Below, piece by piece: positions 1-31,863 of a DNA stretch of 44,859 bases. The stretch lies in the sequence record PX290280.1; one strand, given 5' to 3'. A model generated the notes under the pieces. It was not told the origin of the DNA. It saw only the letters and a list, made by a program, of their open reading frames with translations, and did not search any database. Source of the stretch: a phage. The position numbers were made by a program, and so were the translations under genes. Each line of letters starts with the position of its first letter. Within the stretch, counting starts at the first letter, position 1.

Positions 1-49
1 TCTGTTCGTTTCGTTCACTCCGCTTGCGCTACGTTCACTCGCTCACGTG

Positions 50-190
50 TACCTTAGGTTATTCCTTAATGGGTGGCTTAGGTTAGCCTTAGTGGGCTAC
101 CTTAGTTAAAGCCTTAGTGCTTAGCTTAGTATCAGCTTAGTAGTGTACCTTAGTAAGTCTTAGTGTCTTCTCTTAGTGATTGCATAGCTA
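50..190. repeat. Left-end array of short CTTAG(T/G) repeats
   Basis: Many closely spaced copies of ccttag/cttagt read directly in the first 200 nt; typical of T7-group genome termini. Confidence 0.6.
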
Positions 191-324
191 AAGCTATAAG
201 ATGCAATTAGGTCGCGGTCGGTAGACCGCTAAGAGTAGGTAATAGTAATAAGATGCAGTAGGAGGAACACCAGAAACCTAGCCAACCTAGTCTATGCTAG
301 CTCTGTATCTATTGCTTTGCCTTA

Positions 325-340
325 GTCTAACATGTGAGAC
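325..340. repeat. Degenerate copy of the 16-bp palindrome (gtctaacatgtgagac)
   Basis: One mismatch relative to the GTCTCACATGTGAGAC palindrome found at six other sites. Confidence 0.5.
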
Positions 341-374
341 AACCTAGATTTATCTTAGTGATGATAGCTTAGTA

Positions 375-403
375 TTGACAAGGTCGGTTTAGTGTAATAC
401 TAT
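375..403 (+). promoter_or_regulatory. Candidate host sigma70 early promoter
   Basis: TTGACA (375-380), 17-nt spacer, TACTAT (398-403), upstream of the first early ORFs. The -10 is weak. Confidence 0.35.
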
Positions 404-475
404 TCATCACGTAGGCAGCACTGAGGTGCTTAGTAGCCAGCTAGTAAGGCGTACGAAGAGACTAGTGCCTACATT

Positions 476-491
476 GCTCTTTAACAATCTG
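476..491 (+). promoter_or_regulatory. Conserved early-region element, copy A (GCTCTTTAACAATCTG)
   Basis: One of four copies of a 16-17 nt motif placed about 40-90 nt upstream of consecutive early start codons. Confidence 0.5.
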
Positions 492-546
492 CTTAGTGTA
501 ACCTATGTATGCCGTGGTTAATTACTTATTGAATGAGGTATTAACT

Positions 547-678
547 ATGAGTTTAGCAACGCTGAGTTATGAAGAAATGTATGCAGCCTACTACAACGCA
601 TTAGATGAAGGAGAAGAAGCATTGACCTTCGCTGAGTTTATGGAGGCTTTATGGAGTTTCTATCATGACTCTAAATAA
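547..678 (+). CDS. Hypothetical early protein (43 aa)
   Basis: ATG with GAGGT ribosome-binding site; first of a chain of overlapping small ORFs; below the ORF-track size cutoff. Confidence 0.45.
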   Translation: MSLATLSYEEMYAAYYNALDEGEEALTFAEFMEALWSFYHDSK

Positions 679-850
679 CCGTGAACTATCCGTTCTCTTC
701 ACTCTGTTATGCTACATGATTCGTAACAACGAATTGCTTACAGATGACGAGTTGGCACTATATCACCGCTTTCTTAACGAAGGTTGGACAGATACAGTTA
801 ACCAGAAACGTGACTTGATGAAGGAGTTAAGTAATGATTCAGTTGACTGA
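665..850 (+). CDS. Hypothetical early protein (61 aa)
   Basis: ORF track entry; GGAG upstream; overlaps the previous ORF by 14 nt. Confidence 0.5.
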   Translation: MTLNNRELSVLFTLLCYMIRNNELLTDDELALYHRFLNEGWTDTVNQKRDLMKELSNDSVD

Positions 851-989
851 AGACCAACTAAAGCAACTCTTAGTCGATGCGTGGTTTGCTGGCCATGAAA
901 CCTCGCAATACACACCTAACGCTTACGGCGATGCTAACAGATATGCACGTTCTACATTAAAGGAGGTTAAAGAGGATGTATCAGCATGA
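834..989 (+). CDS. Hypothetical early protein (51 aa)
   Basis: AAGGAG 7 nt upstream of ATG 834; overlaps neighbours at both ends. Confidence 0.45.
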   Translation: MIQLTEDQLKQLLVDAWFAGHETSQYTPNAYGDANRYARSTLKEVKEDVSA

Positions 990-1200
990 GGTTTTCTTTG
1001 AATCAGCTAAAGAAGCTATTCGATTGCATGATGATATGAAGTTAGCAGATATGAAGGTTGGCTTGACCAGCTTCCTGCTGGATTACAACATGGAATATCA
1101 CCGAGTTACCTTAGTATCTGAGTATGACAACCAAGTCATTACTGAGTATCTAGGCAGTGAAGATTACGATTACGATGAAGTAATCACAACAAATCTCTAA
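976..1200 (+). CDS. Hypothetical early protein (74 aa, acidic)
   Basis: AAGGAGG ribosome-binding site; ORF track entry. Confidence 0.6.
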   Translation: MYQHEVFFESAKEAIRLHDDMKLADMKVGLTSFLLDYNMEYHRVTLVSEYDNQVITEYLGSEDYDYDEVITTNL

Positions 1201-1208
1201 ATTAACTA

Positions 1209-1237
1209 TTGACAGCCACGGCATACAAGGTTACATT
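1209..1237 (+). promoter_or_regulatory. Candidate host sigma70 promoter
   Basis: TTGACA (1209-1214), 17-nt spacer, TACATT (1232-1237). Confidence 0.3.
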
Positions 1238-1270
1238 AAGCATCAAGACGGCGACGTCTTTAAACATCCC

Positions 1271-1287
1271 GCTCTTTAACAATCTGG
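1271..1287 (+). promoter_or_regulatory. Conserved early-region element, copy B (GCTCTTTAACAATCTGG)
   Basis: Preceded by a GC hairpin (aagacggcgacgtctt) and followed by TTGGTAGGCT and the start codon at 1327. Confidence 0.5.
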
Positions 1288-1326
1288 CTAGTGCCTTGGT
1301 AGGCTAACTACTTACTAAGGTGAACT

Positions 1327-1539
1327 ATGAACTACTGCGACATCGCTCACGAATTACGCATGGAACGTGAGAAACAAGAAAGGCGGATTATCAAGAAGAT
1401 GGCTGTACTGCTTGCACACTATAAGGCAGACAAACAGCCAACACATGATGAGTTCGTGGACTTCTGTAACATGTATCTTAATGTGAGTAAGGCCACTGGT
1501 TACAGATGGCTTAAAGCACTGAATGATGGAGAATTGTAG
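1327..1539 (+). CDS. Hypothetical early protein (70 aa), possible helix-turn-helix at the C-terminus
   Basis: AAGGTG ribosome-binding site; C-terminal SKATGYRWLKAL resembles a helix-turn-helix recognition helix. Confidence 0.55.
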   Translation: MNYCDIAHELRMEREKQERRIIKKMAVLLAHYKADKQPTHDEFVDFCNMYLNVSKATGYRWLKALNDGEL

Positions 1540-1582
1540 TAATAAGCCAGCTTAATAGCTGGCCTATCAAGGCACTAACCTA

Positions 1583-1599
1583 GCTCTTTAACAATCTGG
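1583..1599 (+). promoter_or_regulatory. Conserved early-region element, copy C
   Basis: Preceded by hairpin ccagcttaatagctgg plus cctatcaaggcac; the downstream 40 nt are nearly identical to copy B. Confidence 0.5.
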
Positions 1600-1638
1600 T
1601 TTGTGTCTTGATAGGCTTACTAACAAAGGTGGACTATC

Positions 1639-1803
1639 ATGACTAACGCACAACGTAAACGCTATGATTCATTGCAAGAGAAACTTGCTGTAGCTTATGC
1701 CGCTTGGCAAGCTAACACAGACAAGAGCAAACACGATAAACTTTATAGTAAAGTGGTTGCAATTAATGCTAAAATAGATAAACTTGTGAATAGTATCTTA
1801 TAA
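1639..1803 (+). CDS. Hypothetical early protein (54 aa)
   Basis: AAAGGTGG ribosome-binding site; below the ORF-track size cutoff. Confidence 0.5.
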   Translation: MTNAQRKRYDSLQEKLAVAYAAWQANTDKSKHDKLYSKVVAINAKIDKLVNSIL

Positions 1804-1845
1804 GATAGTTGCTGGCACTAGCCAGCCTATCAAGGCACAAGCCAC

Positions 1846-1862
1846 GCTCTTTAACAATATGG
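1846..1862 (+). promoter_or_regulatory. Conserved early-region element, copy D (GCTCTTTAACAATATGG)
   Basis: Preceded by hairpin gctggcactagccagc plus cctatcaaggcac. Confidence 0.5.
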
Positions 1863-1952
1863 GTAGTCGCTTCTTAGTCTGGATAGGTTAAACCTAGGGT
1901 ATTCTTTTGAGTGCCCTATAATGTAACCTAACTAACTAATGAGGATTAAATC

Positions 1953-2282
1953 ATGGAACGCAACGCTAACGCTTACTACAACCTTCTGGCTGCAACTGTT
2001 GAAGCATTCAACGAGCGCATCAAGCACGATGAGATTCGTGAAGATGATGATTACTCTGATGCACTGCATGAGGTTGTAGATAGCATGGTGCCAGTTTATT
2101 ACAGCGAAATCTTTACTGTGATGGCTGCTGATGGCATTGATGTTGATTTTGAAGATGCTGGTTTGATTCCTGATACGAAGGATGTAACCAAGATTCTACA
2201 AGCTCGCATCTATGAAGCTCTTTATAATGATGTACCAAATGACAGCGATGTAGTTTGGTATGAAGGCGAAGAAGAGGAATAA
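1953..2282 (+). CDS. ocr: Ocr-like DNA-mimic anti-restriction protein (T7 gene 0.3 homolog)
   Basis: 109-aa highly acidic protein. The segment [43 protein letters not shown] aligns with T7 Ocr as recalled ([43 protein letters not shown]). GAGGA ribosome-binding site. Confidence 0.8.
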   Translation: [109 protein letters not shown]

Positions 2283-2286
2283 TAAG

Positions 2287-2400
2287 ATGGAAAGGCAATA
2301 TAACTTCATCTTCTCAGACGGTGTAACCCTGAAATGTTCCTTACGATTTGCGCAGATTCGTGAGGAAGTGCTAGGTACTACATACAAACTATTTAGCTGA
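2287..2400 (+). CDS. Hypothetical small protein (37 aa)
   Basis: GAGGAA ribosome-binding site directly after the ocr stop codon. Confidence 0.4.
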   Translation: MERQYNFIFSDGVTLKCSLRFAQIREEVLGTTYKLFS

Positions 2401-2415
2401 CACTATAAGAGAAGG
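2391..2415 (+). promoter_or_regulatory. Degenerate phage-promoter-like sequence (ATTTAGCTGACACTATAAGAGAAGG)
   Basis: Matches the phage promoter core but has an extra A before the initiating G; upstream of the RNAP gene. Confidence 0.35.
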
Positions 2416-2476
2416 CTTAACAAGGCGTTGCTACGGTAGCGCCTGATTAAACTTTCACTTACTAGGAGTTGAGATT

Positions 2477-2662
2477 ATGAAAACCTTGATTGGATGCTTC
2501 TTGTTGGCTTCTCTTGCTCTGGCATTTACCGCTAAAGCTGGTTATGACGCTTATAAAGTAGAACAAGCCCAGCAAGACTGGGCCAAAAAGTTCAACTTGT
2601 GCAGCAAGAGCAACACCTACGAGTACTGCAACAAAACACTAAGACACTTATGGAAAGAGTAA
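2477..2662 (+). CDS. Small secreted protein (61 aa) with a signal peptide
   Basis: N-terminus MKTLIGCFLLASLALAFTAKA-GYD looks like a Sec signal peptide with an AKA cleavage site; mature part carries two Cys; AGGAG ribosome-binding site. Confidence 0.6.
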   Translation: MKTLIGCFLLASLALAFTAKAGYDAYKVEQAQQDWAKKFNLCSKSNTYEYCNKTLRHLWKE

Positions 2663-2725
2663 CTAGCCTATAGCCTACCTGAGTGGGCTATGTGATATTT
2701 ACTTACACTATATAAGGTGATTACT

Positions 2726-3610
2726 ATGACTACTGAAAACACCCTCGTGTCTGTCCGTGAAGCTGCAACCGCTGAAATCAAGCAACATTTAGACAATATC
2801 GGCACTTCTTACATCAAAGTTGGCGCTTGTCTGAATGAATTACGCGGTGATTTCGAAGGTCAAAAAGACTTTTTAGCTTATGTAGAATCAGAGTTCGGCA
2901 TCAAGAAGGCACAATGCTACAAGCTGATGAGTGTAGCCCGTGTCTTTGAAGGAGACGAACGCTTTAAAGGTGTGGCTATGCGTGTAATGCTGGCGCTTGT
3001 TCCTTTCGCTGATGAAAATATAATCATGGAGAAGGCCGCAGAACTCGCCGCAGCTGGCAAGCTGGACACTAATGCCGTAAACGCCCTGATTGAACCTAAG
3101 AAAGAGATAAAGACTGAAACGGTACAATCTAAGGCTGTGGCGGTAAAACCGCAGGAGAACGCGACTAAGGCCGCAGAATCACAGGAAATGCAAGCGCCGC
3201 AGGTAGTGACACCCGCGAGCGAGCAGGAGGCCGACGAATCAGCACCATGGGAAGAGGAAAGCAAGCCGGAAGCGCCAAAGGTAGCGCCGCTGGATAACAC
3301 GGCTAATACCGAAAACGCCGCTATGGCTAGCCTCTTAGCACAAATTAAGGCACTGACTGAGCAATTACAGGCAGCTAATGACCGCATCGCCTCCTTAAGT
3401 AGCGCACGCGAAAGCAAGAAGGCAGCCGCACCTATGCTGCCGCAATTCAAATCTTCCTGCTTCTATGCTCGCTTAGGTTTAAGCGCTGAGGAGGCAACGA
3501 AGAAAACAGCAGTTAACAAGGCACGCCGCGAACTGGTTAAGCTAGGCTATGGTGAAGGCCATGAAGCATGGCCCTTAATCTCTGAGGCAGTAGAAGAGTT
3601 GACTAAGTAA
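2726..3610 (+). CDS. Early protein with a KfrA/DUF3102-like N-terminal domain and an Ala/Glu/Lys-rich coiled-coil tail
   Basis: ATG 2726 with AAGGTGA ribosome-binding site (the track's GTG at 2717 is less likely). N-terminal FLAYVESEFGIKKAQCYKLMSVARVF resembles a DNA-binding domain; C-terminal half is low-complexity coiled coil. Confidence 0.6.
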   Translation: MTTENTLVSVREAATAEIKQHLDNIGTSYIKVGACLNELRGDFEGQKDFLAYVESEFGIKKAQCYKLMSVARVFEGDERFKGVAMRVMLALVPFADENIIMEKAAELAAAGKLDTNAVNALIEPKKEIKTETVQSKAVAVKPQENATKAAESQEMQAPQVVTPASEQEADESAPWEEESKPEAPKVAPLDNTANTENAAMASLLAQIKALTEQLQAANDRIASLSSARESKKAAAPMLPQFKSSCFYARLGLSAEEATKKTAVNKARRELVKLGYGEGHEAWPLISEAVEELTK

Positions 3611-3673
3611 CCTTATCGGTGGCATCTTCTTAGGTGTCACCTATTAAGGTTTCTTTCACTAGGAGTAAACAAG

Positions 3674-6301
3674 ATGCAAGACCTACACGCTATTCAACTT
3701 CAACTTGAAGAAGAAATGTTTAACGGCGGTATCCGTCGCTTTGAAGCGGACCAACAACGCCAGATTGCATCCGGTAATGAATCAGACACGGCATGGAATC
3801 GCCGCTTATTGTCCGAACTAATCGCACCTATGGCGGAAGGTATTCAGGCTTACAAGGAAGAATACGAAGGCAAGAGAGGTCGTGCACCACGTGCATTAGC
3901 TTTCATTAACTGCGTAGGAAACGAAGTGGCAGCATATATCACCATGAAAATCGTTATGGATATGCTGAATACAGACGTTACCTTACAAGCAATCGCTATG
4001 AATGTAGCGGACCGCATCGAAGACCAAGTACGTTTTAGCAAGCTGGAAGGTCACGCAGCTAAGTACTTTGAGAAAGTGAAGAAGTCACTTAAGGCTAGCA
4101 AGACTAAATCTTATCGTCATGCGCACAACGTAGCGGTAGTAGCTGAGAAATCTGTTGCTGACCGTGACGCGGATTTCTCCCGTTGGGAGGCATGGCCTAA
4201 AGACACCTTGCTGCAAATCGGTATGACCTTGCTCGAAATATTGGAGAATAGTGTATTCTTCAATGGTCAACCTGTCTTCCTTCGTACCTTGCGCACTAAC
4301 GGCGGAAAGCATGGTGTTTACTATTTACAGACCAGTGAACATGTTGGAGAGTGGATAACTGCATTTAAGGAACATGTAGCGCAGCTCAGCCCTGCCTATG
4401 CACCTTGCGTTATACCTCCCCGCCCTTGGGTATCACCTTTTAACGGTGGGTTTCATACTGAGAAAGTAGCAAGCCGTATTCGTCTGGTAAAAGGCAATCG
4501 TGAGCACGTCCGCAAGCTGACCAAAAAGCAAATGCCAGCCGTTTATAAGGCTGTTAACGCTTTGCAGGCAACTAAGTGGCAGGTTAATAAAGAGGTTTTA
4601 CAGGTTGTGGAGGACGTTATACGTCTAGACCTCGGCTATGGTGTGCCTTCCTTTAAACCACTCATCGACCGTGAGAACAAGCCAGCTAATCCAGTGCCGT
4701 TAGAGTTCCAGCACCTGCGAGGCCGTGAACTTAAAGAGATGCTAACGCCGGAACAATGGCAAGCCTTCATCAACTGGAAAGGCGAATGTACCAAGCTGTA
4801 TACCGCTGAAACTAAGCGCGGCAGCAAATCGGCGGCGACCGTCCGCATGGTTGGGCAGGCACGTAAATACAGCCAGTTTGACGCCATCTACTTCGTGTAT
4901 GCACTGGACAGCCGCAGCCGCGTCTACGCGCAATCTAGCACGCTCTCTCCGCAATCAAACGACTTAGGCAAGGCATTGCTCCGTTTTACCGAAGGGCAGC
5001 GTCTTGATAGCGCTGAGGCGCTTAAGTGGTTTTTGGTGAACGGGGCTAATAACTGGGGTTGGGATAAGAAAACTTTTGACGTGCGCACCGCTAACGTGCT
5101 GGATAGTGAATTTCAAGACATGTGCCGCGACATTGCAGCGGATCCGCTTACCTTCACTCAATGGGTAAATGCCGACTCCCCTTACGGCTTCCTTGCATGG
5201 TGCTTTGAATATGCGCGTTATCTGGATGCACTGGATGAAGGCACGCAAGACCAATTCATGACGCACCTCCCAGTCCATCAAGATGGTAGTTGCTCTGGTA
5301 TCCAGCACTATAGCGCGATGTTACGCGATGCAGTAGGTGCGAAAGCGGTAAACCTTAAGCCCTCTGACTCCCCTCAAGATATTTATGGTGCCGTTGCGCA
5401 GGTAGTAATTCAGAAGAATTATGCATACATGAATGCAGAGGATGCGGAAACCTTCACTTCTGGCAGCGTGACTTTAACAGGTGCGGAACTGCGTAGCATG
5501 GCTAGTGCGTGGGATATGATAGGAATCACTCGCGGCCTGACCAAAAAGCCCGTAATGACACTACCTTATGGCAGCACACGTCTAACCTGCCGTGAGTCAG
5601 TGATTGATTATATCGTTGATTTAGAAGAAAAAGAGGCCCAACGGGCTATTGCGGAAGGGCGTACCGCCAACCCTGTACATCCTTTTGATAATGACCGTAA
5701 GGACAGCCTGACACCTAGCGCAGCTTATAACTATATGACAGCTTTAATCTGGCCTTCTATTTCGGAAGTGGTTAAAGCTCCTATAGTGGCAATGAAAATG
5801 ATTCGTCAGCTTGCACGTTTCGCAGCTAAAAGAAACGAAGGCTTAGAATATCCCTTACCAACTGGCTTCATCTTGCAACAAAAGATAATGGCTACCGATA
5901 TGCTCCGCGTATCCACTTGCTTGATGGGTGAAATCAAGATGAGTCTCCAGATTGAAACAGATGTAGTTGATGAAACGGCAATGATGGGTGCGGCTGCTCC
6001 TAACTTCGTCCATGGTCACGATGCTAGCCACCTGATTCTGACTGTATGTGACCTAGTGGATAAAGGTATTACATCCATTGCAGTCATCCATGATTCTTTC
6101 GGTACTCATGCAGGACGTACCGCAGACCTGCGGGATAGCTTAAGGGAAGAAATGGTTAAGATGTATCAAAACCATAATGCCCTGCAAAACCTGCTAGATG
6201 TGCACGAAGAGCGTTGGTTAGTAGACACCGGAATCCAAGTACCAGAGCAAGGAGAGTTTGACCTTAACGAAATCTTAGTTTCAGACTATTGTTTCGCATA
6301 A
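3674..6301 (+). CDS. Single-subunit DNA-directed RNA polymerase (SP6-type)
   Basis: 875 aa; N-terminus [32 protein letters not shown] and much of the body match SP6 RNA polymerase as recalled; T7-RNAP-family segments [18 protein letters not shown] and IHDSFGTHA are present. Confidence 0.95.
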
Positions 6302-6308
6302 TATTAAT

Positions 6309-6340
6309 AGGCCATTCCTTAGGGAGTGGCCTTTTTCTTT
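6309..6340 (+). terminator. Intrinsic-type terminator after the RNAP gene
   Basis: 10-bp stem aggccattcc / ggagtggcct with a 4-nt loop, followed by TTTTTCTTT. Confidence 0.6.
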
Positions 6341-6374
6341 ACCTACTACCTGTAACATTTCATTAACATAAAGT

Positions 6375-6390
6375 GTCTCACATGTGAGAC
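6375..6390. repeat. 16-bp palindrome GTCTCACATGTGAGAC
   Basis: Perfect inverted repeat, ending 2 nt before the phage promoter at 6393. Confidence 0.8.
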
Positions 6391-6392
6391 TT

Positions 6393-6415
6393 ATTTACCG
6401 GACACTATAGGATAG
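6393..6415 (+). promoter_or_regulatory. Phage RNAP promoter (ATTTACCGGACACTATAGGATAG)
   Basis: Matches the 23-nt consensus shared by 12 sites. Confidence 0.7.
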
Positions 6416-6419
6416 CCGT

Positions 6420-6530
6420 CGGAGACGGGAAAGAAAGGGAAGATAAAGGATATAAAGGAAGTAATAGGTATTAAAGGTTATATAGGTTATCTAGGAATAC
6501 CTAGGAATACCTATTACCTTCTTCCTTCCT
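6420..6530. other. AT-rich iteron-like region between two phage promoters (candidate primary replication origin)
   Basis: Reiterated ATAAAGGA / ATAGGT motifs and a tandem CTAGGAATAC x2 (6491-6510), flanked by promoters at 6393 and 6587; same position as the T7 primary origin. Confidence 0.4.
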
Positions 6531-6565
6531 CTTATTACCACTTAGAGGAAGGGCAGACCTAGGTT

Positions 6566-6581
6566 GTCTCACATGTGAGAC
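6566..6581. repeat. 16-bp palindrome GTCTCACATGTGAGAC
   Basis: Perfect copy, ending 5 nt before the promoter at 6587; preceded by AAGGGCAGACCTAGGTT, which recurs at 44438-44454. Confidence 0.8.
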
Positions 6582-6586
6582 TTCGT

Positions 6587-6609
6587 ATTTACCGGACAGT
6601 ATAGATAAG
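6587..6609 (+). promoter_or_regulatory. Phage RNAP promoter variant (ATTTACCGGACAGTATAGATAAG)
   Basis: Consensus match with a C-to-G change in the core (GACAGTATAG). Confidence 0.55.
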
Positions 6610-6636
6610 ACTAACTCACTTTGGAGATTTTTAACC

Positions 6637-6765
6637 ATGCGTAACTTTGAGAAGATGACCCGTAAAGCTAACCGTTTTGACACGGAAGAAGGGCAGACGA
6701 AAGGCAAGAAGCTGAATAAACCTGTCCGTGACCGTGCATCTAAACGCGCTGCGTGGGAGTTCTAA
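6637..6765 (+). CDS. Hypothetical small basic protein (42 aa)
   Basis: GGAGA ribosome-binding site; immediately upstream of the primase gene. Confidence 0.45.
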   Translation: MRNFEKMTRKANRFDTEEGQTKGKKLNKPVRDRASKRAAWEF

Positions 6766-6768
6766 GTT

Positions 6769-8757
6769 ATGGCTATTATTCAGAATGTACCGTGTCCTGC
6801 CTGTCAAAAGAATGGACATGATATTACTGGCAACCATCTTATGATATTTGAGGATGGCGCTGGTTACTGTAACCGTGGTCACTTCCATGATAACGGCAAG
6901 CCTTATTACCATAAGCCAGAGGGTGGCATCGAGATAACCGAATTACCTATTACTGGCAATATCAAATATACACCTTCTCAGTTTAAAGAGATGGAGAAGG
7001 AAGGGAAGATTAGCGACCCTAAGCTACGCGCCATCGCACTTGGTGGTATGCGTATGAAAGACCGTTGGGAGGTCATGAATGAGCAAGAAAGGGCAGAACA
7101 AGAAGCAGAGTGGAAACTTGATGTTGAATGGTTCCTCACGCTTAAGCGTAAGAACCTTGTATCCCGTCACATTCGAGGTGACATCGCAGCAATGTACGAT
7201 GTGCGCGTTGGACACGATGAAGAGGGAAGAGTCAACCGTCACTATTATCCACGATATGAAAAGGGTGTGCTTGTTGGAGCAAAATGCCGGACGTTGCCGA
7301 AGGATTTTAAGTTCGGACACCTAGGTAAACTCTTTGGTATGCAAGACCTTTTCGGTATGAACACTTTGTCTCACGTGTTAGACAAGGGAAGACGAAAGGA
7401 TTGCTTGCTTATTGTGGGCGGCGAACTGGATGCACTAGCAGCACAGCAGATGCTCCTTGATTCTGCCAAGGGTACTAAGTGGGAAGGCCAGCCTTACCAT
7501 GTATGGTCTGTCAATAAAGGTGAGTCTTGCCTTGAAGAGATAGTGCAGAGCCGTGAGCATATCGCCCAATTCAAGAAGATTATATGGGGTTTTGATGGAG
7601 ATGAGGTGGGGCAGAAGCAGAACCAACAAGCTGCTCGCCTGTTTCCTGGCAAATCCTACATCCTCGAATACCCCTCTGGTTGCAAAGATGCTAACAAGGC
7701 ATTGATGGCTGGCAAGGCTAAAGAATTTGTGGATGCTTGGTTTAATGCAAAGTCATCTGATGAAGTCTTTGGTAGCCAGATTAAATCTATCGCATCTCAA
7801 AGGGATAAGCTCAAGGCTGCACGTCCAGAGCAAGGACTATCATGGCCTTGGCCTAAGCTGAACAAGGTAACGCTGGGTATTCGTAAGAACCAGCTTATCA
7901 TTATAGGTGCAGGCTCTGGTGTAGGTAAGACTGAGTTCCTTCGTGAAGTTGTTAAGCACCTCATTGAAGAACACGGTGAATCTGTAGGCATCATTTCTAC
8001 AGAAGACCCAATGGTCAAGGTGTCCCGTGCTTTTATCGGTAAGTGGATTGATAAGCGTATTGAGTTACCACCAACCAACGACCCGAAAGAAGACGGATAC
8101 CGTGAGGTGTTCGATTACACCGAGGAAGAAGCTAACGCTGCCATTGATTATGTGGCTGATACAGGAAAGCTATTTGTGGCTGACCTAGAAGGCGACTATT
8201 CGATGGAGAAGGTAGAGCAAACTTGCCTAGAGTTTGAGGCTATGGGAATTTCTAATATCATCATTGATAACTTAACGGGGATTAAATTAGATGAGCGTGC
8301 TTTTGGTGGGAAGGTTGGTGCACTTGATGAATGCGTCAAACGAATTGGTACTATCAAAGACCGACATGCGGTTACGATTTTCCTTGTCTCTCACCTTACA
8401 CGTCCTCCGGCAAACCGTACCCAACACGAAGAAGGTGGCGAAGTTATCCTTTCTGACTTCCGAGGCTCAGGCGCTATCGGATTCTGGGCATCTTACGCCT
8501 TGGGGATTGAGCGTAATACAAGAGCTGAAACGCTTGATGAAAGGACTACCACGTACATCTCTTGTGTCAAAGACCGCGACCAAGGTATCTACACAGGAAC
8601 CAAAGTCATGCTCAAGGGTGACATTCAGACCGGACGCTTGAGAGAACCACAAGCTAGAACAAGGTCGTTTGATACAGGCGAAGCAAGGCAACAAGAAGTA
8701 CCGGATTTACCGGACACTATAGAAGAGACAACATTTGACGATGAACAGGAGTTTTAA
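6769..8757 (+). CDS. DNA primase/helicase (T7 gp4-like)
   Basis: N-terminal zinc ribbon CPACQ...CNRGH, DnaB-type Walker A GAGSGVGKTE, and an acidic C-terminal tail ending DDEQEF. Confidence 0.9.
   Translation: MAIIQNVPCPACQKNGHDITGNHLMIFEDGAGYCNRGHFHDNGKPYYHKPEGGIEITELPITGNIKYTPSQFKEMEKEGKISDPKLRAIALGGMRMKDRWEVMNEQERAEQEAEWKLDVEWFLTLKRKNLVSRHIRGDIAAMYDVRVGHDEEGRVNRHYYPRYEKGVLVGAKCRTLPKDFKFGHLGKLFGMQDLFGMNTLSHVLDKGRRKDCLLIVGGELDALAAQQMLLDSAKGTKWEGQPYHVWSVNKGESCLEEIVQSREHIAQFKKIIWGFDGDEVGQKQNQQAARLFPGKSYILEYPSGCKDANKALMAGKAKEFVDAWFNAKSSDEVFGSQIKSIASQRDKLKAARPEQGLSWPWPKLNKVTLGIRKNQLIIIGAGSGVGKTEFLREVVKHLIEEHGESVGIISTEDPMVKVSRAFIGKWIDKRIELPPTNDPKEDGYREVFDYTEEEANAAIDYVADTGKLFVADLEGDYSMEKVEQTCLEFEAMGISNIIIDNLTGIKLDERAFGGKVGALDECVKRIGTIKDRHAVTIFLVSHLTRPPANRTQHEEGGEVILSDFRGSGAIGFWASYALGIERNTRAETLDERTTTYISCVKDRDQGIYTGTKVMLKGDIQTGRLREPQARTRSFDTGEARQQEVPDLPDTIEETTFDDEQEF
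8705..8727 (+). promoter_or_regulatory. Phage RNAP promoter inside the 3' end of the primase/helicase gene
   Basis: ATTTACCGGACACTATAGAAGAG. Confidence 0.7.
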
Positions 8758-8931: not shown

Positions 8932-8955
8932 GCTTGTCTCACATGTGAGACAGGC
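8932..8955. repeat. Extended palindrome hairpin (gcttGTCTCACATGTGAGACaggc)
   Basis: Core palindrome plus flanking complementarity, followed by TCTTATT. Confidence 0.8.
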
Positions 8956-31841: not shown

Positions 31842-31863
31842 CTTGTCTCACATGTGAGACAGG
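31842..31863. repeat. Extended palindrome hairpin (cttGTCTCACATGTGAGACagg)
   Basis: Perfect core plus flanks, followed by TCTTTAT; between two internal virion protein genes. Confidence 0.8.

Follow-up and report, generated by a model that had tools for sequence, protein, structure and literature searches.

Host-type BoxA elements in a repeated, gene-bracketing helix frame in the early region of a K1E-like phage

The phage sequence PX290280.1 (44,859 nucleotides (nt); "the window" hereafter means this whole stretch of DNA) comes from a K1E/K1-5-like Vectrevirus of the SP6 group of Autographiviridae. Its early region contains four copies of a 17-base element that, judged by its sequence, is a host-type BoxA, the RNA site bound by NusB-NusE. 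Three of these copies are coupled to long-range helices whose two strands bracket the intervening early gene or genes. We favor a reading, with a probability of roughly 0.68, in which host-type BoxAs sit in a fixed helix frame, the host RNA polymerase (RNAP) is modified by Nus factors, and early genes are bracketed by leader and trailer strands. The observations behind it are the identity, position and strand of the motif, the co-varying helices, and a frame that is conserved around unrelated open reading frames (ORFs).

The element, GCTCTTTAACAAT(C/A)TG(G/C), starts at positions 476, 1271, 1583 and 1846 and occurs on the + strand only. A preliminary description of this DNA had reported a conserved four-copy element at the same positions, and a motif search bears this out. 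The query GCTCTTTAACAATMTGG matches exactly at 1271, 1583 and 1846 and with one mismatch at 476, where the copy ends in CTGC. Only 0.28 copies are expected by chance, and none of 100 shuffled sequences reaches four. We refer to the copies as A to D.

476-492, + strand: BoxA copy A, GCTCTTTAACAATCTGC, exact match to GYTCTTTAANA
1271-1287, + strand: BoxA copy B, from the motif search, exact consensus match
1583-1599, + strand: BoxA copy C, from the motif search, exact consensus match
1846-1862, + strand: BoxA copy D, from the motif search, exact consensus match

In all four copies, the 11-nt core is identical to GYTCTTTAANA, the BoxA consensus of gamma-proteobacteria (PMC5725501), and the 44.9-kb window holds no other exact match. 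The phage motif has 13 nt in common with the leader boxA of rrnG, which reads CACugcucuuuaacaauuua (PMC2724277). In the E. coli rrn operon, the leader boxA is GCTCTTTAACAATTTA and the boxA of the 16S-23S spacer is GCTCTTTAAAAATCTGG; the spacer version is identical to the phage 17-mer at 16 of 17 positions. The extension AATCTGG is common to this spacer boxA (L305, E. coli NZ_AP018784.2, 4223-4239), the phage and the T7 copies. Conservation therefore exceeds the 11-nt consensus, which hints that the extra bases are functional.

The same element is found in related phages. T7 contains the identical 17-mer at 813, between the host promoter A3 (750) and gene 0.3 (925), and exact copies occur three times in K1-5 and twice in SP6. 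In K1E, three exact copies are accompanied by a fourth that has an extra T. This fourth copy, the counterpart of copy D (L001, AM084415, 2238-2249), reads GCTCTTTTAACA and is off-consensus; the extra T is either a natural variant or a sequencing error in the 2006 record. The element carries no annotation in the curated records that we inspected, and a search of positions 1-7000 with the Rfam 15 covariance models gave only chance-level microRNA matches.

The preliminary description, which had doubted that the copies are standard sigma70 promoters, considered TTAACA as a possible -35 hexamer and suggested operators or RNase III processing sites as alternatives. TTAACA does match TTGACA at five of six positions, and the element does recur before genes. 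However, a promoter scan found no acceptable -10 sequence at 16-18 nt spacing at any copy, and true consensus promoters lie upstream. The caution about standard promoters was thus justified, while the proposed -35 hexamer has to be given up. An operator does not fit the strict strand specificity of the element or its exact match to the host consensus for an RNA-binding site. As for processing, RNase III needs double-stranded RNA, and the motif appears in the conserved structures as an unpaired, single-stranded linker between helices; the flanking helices and hairpin are retained as candidate sites, and the motif itself is not. That the motif is a sigma70 promoter, a DNA operator or an RNase III cleavage site is, in our estimate, the least probable of the explanations considered here.

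Next to the BoxAs, the preliminary description had pointed out CCTATCAAGGCAC before copies C and D and (T)TGRTAGGCT downstream of copies B and C. Both are present: CCTATCAAGGCAC lies at 1563-1575 and 1826-1838, and TGRTAGGCT lies at 1297-1305 and 1609-1617, 16 nt beyond the BoxA 11-mer. What had been overlooked is that CCTATCAAGGCAC and GTGYCTTGRTAGG are complementary to each other and that a further complementarity links 1214-1242 with the strand following copy A (490-519). These strands form the helices alpha, beta1 and beta2, with the 3' strands marked by a prime.

490-519, + strand: alpha, helix 5' strand after boxA A, pairs with 1214-1242
1214-1242, + strand: alpha', 3' strand; the helix brackets the ORFs at 547-1200
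1284-1305, + strand: beta1, 5' strand; the helix brackets the ORF at 1327-1539
1561-1580, + strand: beta1', 3' strand, contains CCTATCAAGGCAC
1596-1617, + strand: beta2, 5' strand; the helix brackets the ORF at 1639-1803, -47.7 kcal/mol with 1824-1844
1824-1844, + strand: beta2', 3' strand, with the second CCTATCAAGGCAC

The alpha/alpha' duplex comprises 29 base pairs (bp) with one bulged A505 and a predicted energy of -48 kcal/mol, and bracketing helices are 20-29 bp long. A simple rule describes their placement in the window and its relatives. The 5' strand begins 0-3 nt after the ...AACAAT of boxA. At copies A-C, its 3' partner is found past the gene or genes in between, 0-30 nt ahead of the next BoxA. 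The order of the frame at these copies is a stem-loop, BoxA as a probably single-stranded linker, the 5' helix strand 2-3 nt later, the gene or genes, the 3' strand and the next BoxA.

We gathered relatives by scanning viral contigs and analyzed covariation in the helix strands. Of 49 distinct BoxA copies, 31 are followed by 30 nt with an exceptional pairing partner downstream (Mann-Whitney p = 9e-10). The others are mostly the final BoxAs of their clusters, where, as at copy D, the strand folds into a long local hairpin that extends to the start codon of ocr. For beta, we aligned 15 distinct cassettes, anchored on GRTAGR and YCTAYC only. In this alignment, 97.7% of cells are paired and 13 of 20 pairs have changed on both sides; slid registers pair at 30-42%, and none of 500 shuffles reaches any of the measures. 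When the whole frame was given to RNAalifold with the ORF replaced by AAAA, the beta helix independently emerged as the consensus. The alpha helix behaves in the same way, with 98.9% of cells paired, 16 of 25 pairs double-changed and 0/500 shuffles. The non-Watson-Crick cells comprise 27 G.U and only 4 A.C, indicating selection on a + strand RNA helix and disfavoring a DNA-level inverted repeat or a recombination-only origin of the complementarity.

The frame surrounds genes that have little in common. Seventeen bracketed ORFs fall into 13 unrelated families of 36-95 amino acids (aa), with Shine-Dalgarno (SD) sequences present. BoxA start and ATG are 55-61 nt apart across cassettes (56 nt for copies B and C), compared with 71 nt for copy A and 107 nt for copy D. 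The stop codon is separated from the next BoxA by 38-48 nt, and within this interval a co-varying GC hairpin of 6-7 bp directly adjoins the trailer strand. We located the junction module in 151 phage records that represent at least eight host genera, and no feature annotation of the frame appears among the matches listed from these records. We found the frame in Vectrevirus, Zindervirus, Acadevirus, Phimunavirus and Kayfunavirus phages and also in phages of Vibrio and Edwardsiella. All parts of the architecture were seen together in Pectobacterium phage Gaspode (Corkvirinae), Proteus phage PM85 (Acadevirus), one Vibrio phage, one Edwardsiella phage and a T7-like Kayfunavirus contig.

This spread raises the possibility that the junctions are mainly recombination linkers, boundary sequences held in common through which Autographiviridae swap early-gene cassettes by homologous recombination. 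One frame around 13 unrelated ORF families, its occurrence in different subfamilies including the T7-like Kayfunavirus, and the fact that K1E, K1-5 and the window differ by whole cassettes would all be expected of linkers. Yet linkers need identity, not complementarity, and the arms diverge while they keep pairing, with G.U tolerated and A.C avoided. The BoxA core, moreover, is a consensus for binding of a host protein. We consider it quite improbable that linkage is the main function; cassette exchange is better viewed as a consequence of the repeated frame.

Upstream of each BoxA is a further structured element.

411-472, + strand: predicted leader stem-loop before boxA A, GTAGGCA 411-417 / TGCCTAC 466-472
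1245-1260, + strand: hairpin before boxA B, AAGACG-gcga-CGTCTT (AAGACGgcgaCGTCTT)
1546-1563, + strand: GC hairpin GCCAGC-ttaata-GCTGGC, abuts beta1', -13 kcal/mol
1811-1826, + strand: GC hairpin GCTGGC-acta-GCCAGC, abuts beta2'

A GC hairpin had been claimed before every copy, which holds for C and D; copy B has a different hairpin and copy A has the larger predicted leader stem. Likewise, the hairpins and CCTATCAAGGCAC before C and D are where they had been placed, but the hairpins are not nearly identical as described, since their stems are strand-swapped, though equivalent. The rrn-type arrangement, with a hairpin directly upstream of boxA, is thus seen at 1245-1260, 1546-1563 and 1811-1826 and, as a predicted stem, at 411-472. 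In relatives, the stem of the 1546-1563 hairpin co-varies (GCTTGC/GCAAGC, GTCGGC/GCTGGC and others). A helix of 20-29 bp with a stacked hairpin of 6-7 bp is of a length compatible with RNase III cleavage.

A further pairing is conceivable within the cassette. CTATC (1633-1638) before the start codon can pair with GATAG (1803-1808) after the stop codon, with the variants TTATC/GATAA and CTTAT/ATAAG in other cassettes, and this would join the start and stop of the small ORF. We rejected an inner helix between the SD-ATG spacer and the post-stop sequence as part of the frame: its pairing is weak (-2.5 to -9.7 kcal/mol) and ambiguous, since GATAG may lengthen the GC hairpin instead.

The arms of beta also allow a local alternative, in which beta1' (1561-1580) pairs with 1598-1616. 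A local hairpin enclosing boxA as the functional unit was likewise rejected. It is strong only at window copy C and its K1E counterpart, and in SP6 and numerous contigs no pairing of the arms other than around the gene is possible. The complementary arms of SP6 flank gene 0.2 and cannot enclose a boxA; besides SP6, the arms are pairable only around the gene in L115, L147, L183, L213, L241 and L180.

Copy D has a different downstream structure. For the strand that follows it, we found no convincing long-range partner in the window, and the best partner is local.

1858-1955, + strand: gamma, a long, irregular local hairpin that starts just after boxA D and runs to the start codon of ocr; its upper stem is 1895-1904/1909-1918

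The gamma fold has an energy of -37.3 kcal/mol (z = -4.84; 0/200 shuffles). Per-sequence folds of the relatives show that its architecture is kept, with the upper stem present in three unrelated sequence versions. An upper stem, an internal loop and a lower stem in an intergenic leader, as in T7-type early sites, are seen for copy D only; copies A-C have long-range helices in place of the local hairpin. The consensus beta frame and the gamma fold both leave BoxA unpaired, and individual copies have alternatives: boxA A is pairable with 455-460, and boxA C can be looped in the local hairpin.

The surrounding promoters and genes place these structures in the region transcribed by the host polymerase.

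375-403, + strand: P1, predicted strong sigma70-type early promoter, TTGACA-17 nt-TACTAT, scan match 10/12, upstream of copy A
547-678, 665-850, 834-989 and 976-1200, + strand: four overlapping small early ORFs, each matching a PHROG of unknown function, bracketed by alpha/alpha'
1209-1237, + strand: P2, predicted strong sigma70-type promoter, TTGACA-17 nt-TACATT, scan match 10/12, overlaps alpha', upstream of copy B
1327-1539, + strand: cassette ORF, 70 aa, homologue of K1E gp2.5 (phrog_26099, unknown function)
1639-1803, + strand: cassette ORF, 54 aa, homologue of K1E gp2.8 (phrog_16783, unknown function)
1953-2282, + strand: ocr-like anti-restriction gene (phrog_2568, E = 8e-51)
2393-2411, + strand: first phage-RNAP (SP6-type) promoter, end of the host-RNAP-only segment
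3674-6301: phage RNAP gene

Because P1 lies upstream of copy A, copy A is predicted to be within the transcript, and the BoxAs are by the same prediction on the sense strand of a host-RNAP transcript. None of the 11 + strand matches to phage-RNAP promoters in the window lies upstream of 2393, so all four BoxAs are in a stretch that only host RNAP transcribes. A role in early, host-RNAP-dependent expression, as the preliminary description had proposed, agrees with this predicted location. The location also fits an element that acts through Nus factors, because these act on host RNAP and are inactive on T7-type polymerases (PMC5725501).

P2 is conserved in relatives, and its spacer co-varies with alpha. 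P2 and alpha' lie on one and the same stretch of DNA (1209-1242), and the spacer and -10 region co-vary with the strand after boxA A in relatives. The predicted P2 start at ~1244 coincides with the end of the alpha' strand; P2 transcripts and processed read-through RNA would therefore start at approximately the same place.

With four high-consensus sites within 1.4 kb behind strong promoters, the boxA RNAs might instead work in trans, with abundant early transcripts or short linker fragments serving as decoys that titrate NusB-S10 from host rrn and aid the shutdown of ribosome synthesis. Each site lies between two potentially cuttable helices, from which a short boxA RNA could be released. This idea is purely inferential, T7 has one copy only, and nothing in the sequence separates a decoy from cis action. 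We regard it as very unlikely.

For the favored reading, in which BoxA acts in cis on host RNAP, we propose the following mechanism. Transcribed BoxA would bind NusB-NusE(S10) and nucleate a Nus-factor-modified E. coli RNAP, and the nascent BoxA of every cassette would re-load the Nus factors. The result would be fast, Rho-resistant and pause-resistant transcription across the ~6 kb, with their short ORFs and untranslated gaps, that lead to the phage RNAP gene. Genome entry of T7 needs host RNAP transcription (PMC11863960), and by analogy processive host transcription would also aid entry here. While tethered to RNAP, BoxA would hold the leader strand at the RNA exit channel, and the helix would form once the trailer emerges. 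The helices, stacked on the abutting GC hairpin, would be RNase III-type substrates, and their cleavage would divide the polycistronic RNA into mRNAs of gene size whose ends are paired or protected by a hairpin.

An effect on translation is another candidate. The BoxA end lies ~45-50 nt from the start codon, within the regulatory range described by Baniulyte et al. (PMC5725501), and the pairing of the SD-ATG spacer CTATC with GATAG after the stop codon might contribute. BoxA could then be a translational or Rho-coupled regulator as in suhB, where a Nus complex loops the RNA, hides the ribosome-binding site and delays or throttles translation, a block possibly lifted by RNase III or by RNAP passage. 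Self-repression of early genes nevertheless seems counter-productive in a lytic phage, and the distance to the ATG is 71 nt for copy A and 107 nt for copy D. The inner start/stop helix also pairs weakly, at -2.5 to -9.7 kcal/mol, and the long, co-varying helix strand after BoxA would go unexplained. We therefore think a suhB-like regulator unlikely.

Several points weigh against the combination of Nus-modified RNAP and leader-trailer bracketing that we favor. Nus binding, antitermination and RNase III cleavage are steps that we infer, as is the tethering of BoxA to RNAP. As suhB exemplifies, a BoxA placed 45-50 nt before a start codon may lower translation instead of promoting expression (PMC5725501). 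Most loci were retrieved with boxA-containing patterns, which biases the rate of association between boxA and the arms upward, and the covariation comes from a limited number of lineages, with about four sequence classes in the case of alpha. At copy A, AAGAGA (455-460) is able to pair with CUCUUU of the boxA, partially sequestering it. The minimum free energy (MFE) fold of the window prefers a nested pairing, 1291-1304:1825-1838, together with a local hairpin, 1561-1575:1603-1617, that encloses boxA C. Given this alternative and three near-identical beta arms, the exact pairing partners in the window are ambiguous. Finally, some junctions have no boxA, with the trailer directly followed by the next leader strand (L149 and L170), and others have a TTGACA promoter in its place (L145, L161, L173 and L198). 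BoxA is thus frequent at these junctions, but not obligatory for the helix.

The components of the frame are known already: BoxA, Nus factors, leader-trailer helices and T7 RNase III sites. BoxA/Nus control and leader-trailer helices are textbook features of rRNA operons, and BoxAs on mRNAs have been recognized only recently, in suhB and in the leaders of clustered regularly interspaced short palindromic repeat (CRISPR) arrays. We found no description of multi-copy BoxA with co-varying, gene-bracketing helices as a portable frame in a search that did not take in the original SP6, K1-5 and K1E genome papers, and no paper in the literature searched links boxA to T7- or SP6-group phages. More broadly, the early operons of SP6-like and other Autographiviridae might be strings of mini rrn-style units (hairpin-BoxA-leader-ORF(s)-hairpin-trailer) that borrow the host's rRNA machinery, namely Nus-factor-modified RNAP, the helix-promoting BoxA tether and RNase III, for genes that encode proteins. 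They would also serve as a portable cassette for unrelated small early genes, candidates for host takeover or anti-defence such as ocr, that are swapped from one phage subfamily to another. We offer this generalization tentatively and rate it somewhat short of an even chance.

If the favored reading is true, a lytic phage applies the whole rrn logic to protein-coding genes and would provide a compact natural test system for helix chaperoning by a Nus-tethered BoxA. It could show how T7-group phages keep host RNAP processive in the first minutes of infection, possibly including transcription-driven entry. The frame also has practical uses, being absent from Rfam and unannotated in the inspected records. 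As a sequence-independent flag for hypervariable early accessory genes, it could assist the discovery of anti-defence genes, and it could guide the design of early-expression cassettes in engineered phages.

Phage use of BoxA appears to be much wider than lambda and T7. Repeated or conserved BoxAs are present in unrelated viral contigs, e.g., L063 (9434-10598), L104 (4207-5550), L011, L049 and L058. The three BoxAs of L063 each end the same ~45-nt repeat unit and are 563-591 nt apart, and the three of L104 each follow a TATAAT-like box. A large contig family reads AAAAAAGCGCCCTACAGGACGCTTA-GCTCTTTAACAATCTGG.

Two other repeats were observed in the window. CTTAG occurs 16 times in the first 520 nt, mostly at 53-172, compared with 0.59 expected from the rest of the window, and seven times in the last 600 nt. 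These clusters look like a terminal-region repeat array reminiscent of the genome-end repeats of the T7 group. A perfect 16-bp palindrome, GTCTCACATGTGAGAC, occurs four times (6375-6390, 6566-6581, 8936-8951 and 31845-31860), the first two copies 4-6 nt upstream of the phage-promoter-like TTACCGGACA(C/G)TATA. A terminator stem and a regulatory site are both conceivable roles for it.

How does this arrangement compare with known uses of BoxA? At nutL and nutR of lambda (boxA-spacer-boxB, serving N-dependent antitermination), a phage uses the host BoxA to load Nus factors on host RNAP early, as we propose for the window. The lambda boxA, CGCUCUUA, is weaker, and its boxB hairpin lies downstream and binds the phage N protein; here the BoxA is a consensus rrn-type site with the hairpin upstream. 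The window therefore lacks the lambda-type nut order, the sequence hairpin-boxA being that of rrn; an N-like protein was not searched for.

BoxAs in CRISPR array leaders stand ahead of a repetitive, structured transcript and work with Nus factors. The BoxAs in the 5' untranslated regions of suhB and other gamma-proteobacterial genes resemble the phage copies in lying outside rRNA, within ~50 nt of a start codon, and work with Nus factors (PMC5725501), as the phage copies would in our reading. Both kinds are single sites without a coupled leader-trailer helix or cassette repetition, unlike the phage frame.

In T4-like phages, early gene cassettes are bounded by promoter-early stem-loops. There, as here, short hypervariable early ORFs sit in a repeated non-coding frame that probably favors shuffling. 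The T4-like frame consists of a promoter and terminator-like stem-loops, whereas ours consists of BoxA and arms that are complementary at the RNA level.

The early leader of T7 is a close phage parallel to copy D, which is its positional and structural counterpart in the window. It has the identical 17-mer, GCTCTTTAACAATCTGG, downstream of host promoters and upstream of ocr, and downstream of this boxA an extended, irregular hairpin folds locally and reaches as far as the start codon. We take that hairpin to be the R0.3 RNase III site, presumably cut after U890, a position that neither the literature nor the annotation of the T7 record confirmed. The T7 boxA has probably been noted before, though the literature searched gave no confirmation. 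T7 differs in having a single copy and local hairpins only, whereas three of the window's four copies are coupled to long-range helices that bracket genes.

A close match to the frame is the rRNA operon. In E. coli rrn, the leader BoxA stands behind a hairpin (boxB) and 1-2 nt ahead of the 5' strand of the 16S helix. The trailer strand lies 5 nt after 16S, a second hairpin-BoxA precedes 23S, and RNase III cuts the processing stems of both rRNAs. The phage frame shares the BoxA sequence, the upstream hairpin, a helix 5' strand within 1-3 nt of BoxA, a helix that brackets the product with the trailer right after it, and a second BoxA leading into the next unit. The rrn boxC belongs to the 5' strand of a helix of 25-40 bp, and what matters is this helix, not the boxC sequence (PMC10250234). 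The 23S helix has 27 bp and is cut by RNase III, and a NusB-anchored BoxA has been proposed to retain that 5' strand at the exit channel for RNA until the trailer appears (PMC10250234). The phage frame differs in having no boxC sequence, in helices of 20-29 bp instead of 25-40 bp, and in units of 210-800 nt with up to four repeats. Its product also differs, being a small protein ORF (36-95 aa) or a four-ORF block, not a stable RNA. As in rrn, then, the 5' strand of a long helix stands right after boxA with its partner beyond the product, but the bracketed segments are protein-coding ORFs. For this reason, we place the phage system as one that works like the rrn family, not as a member of it.

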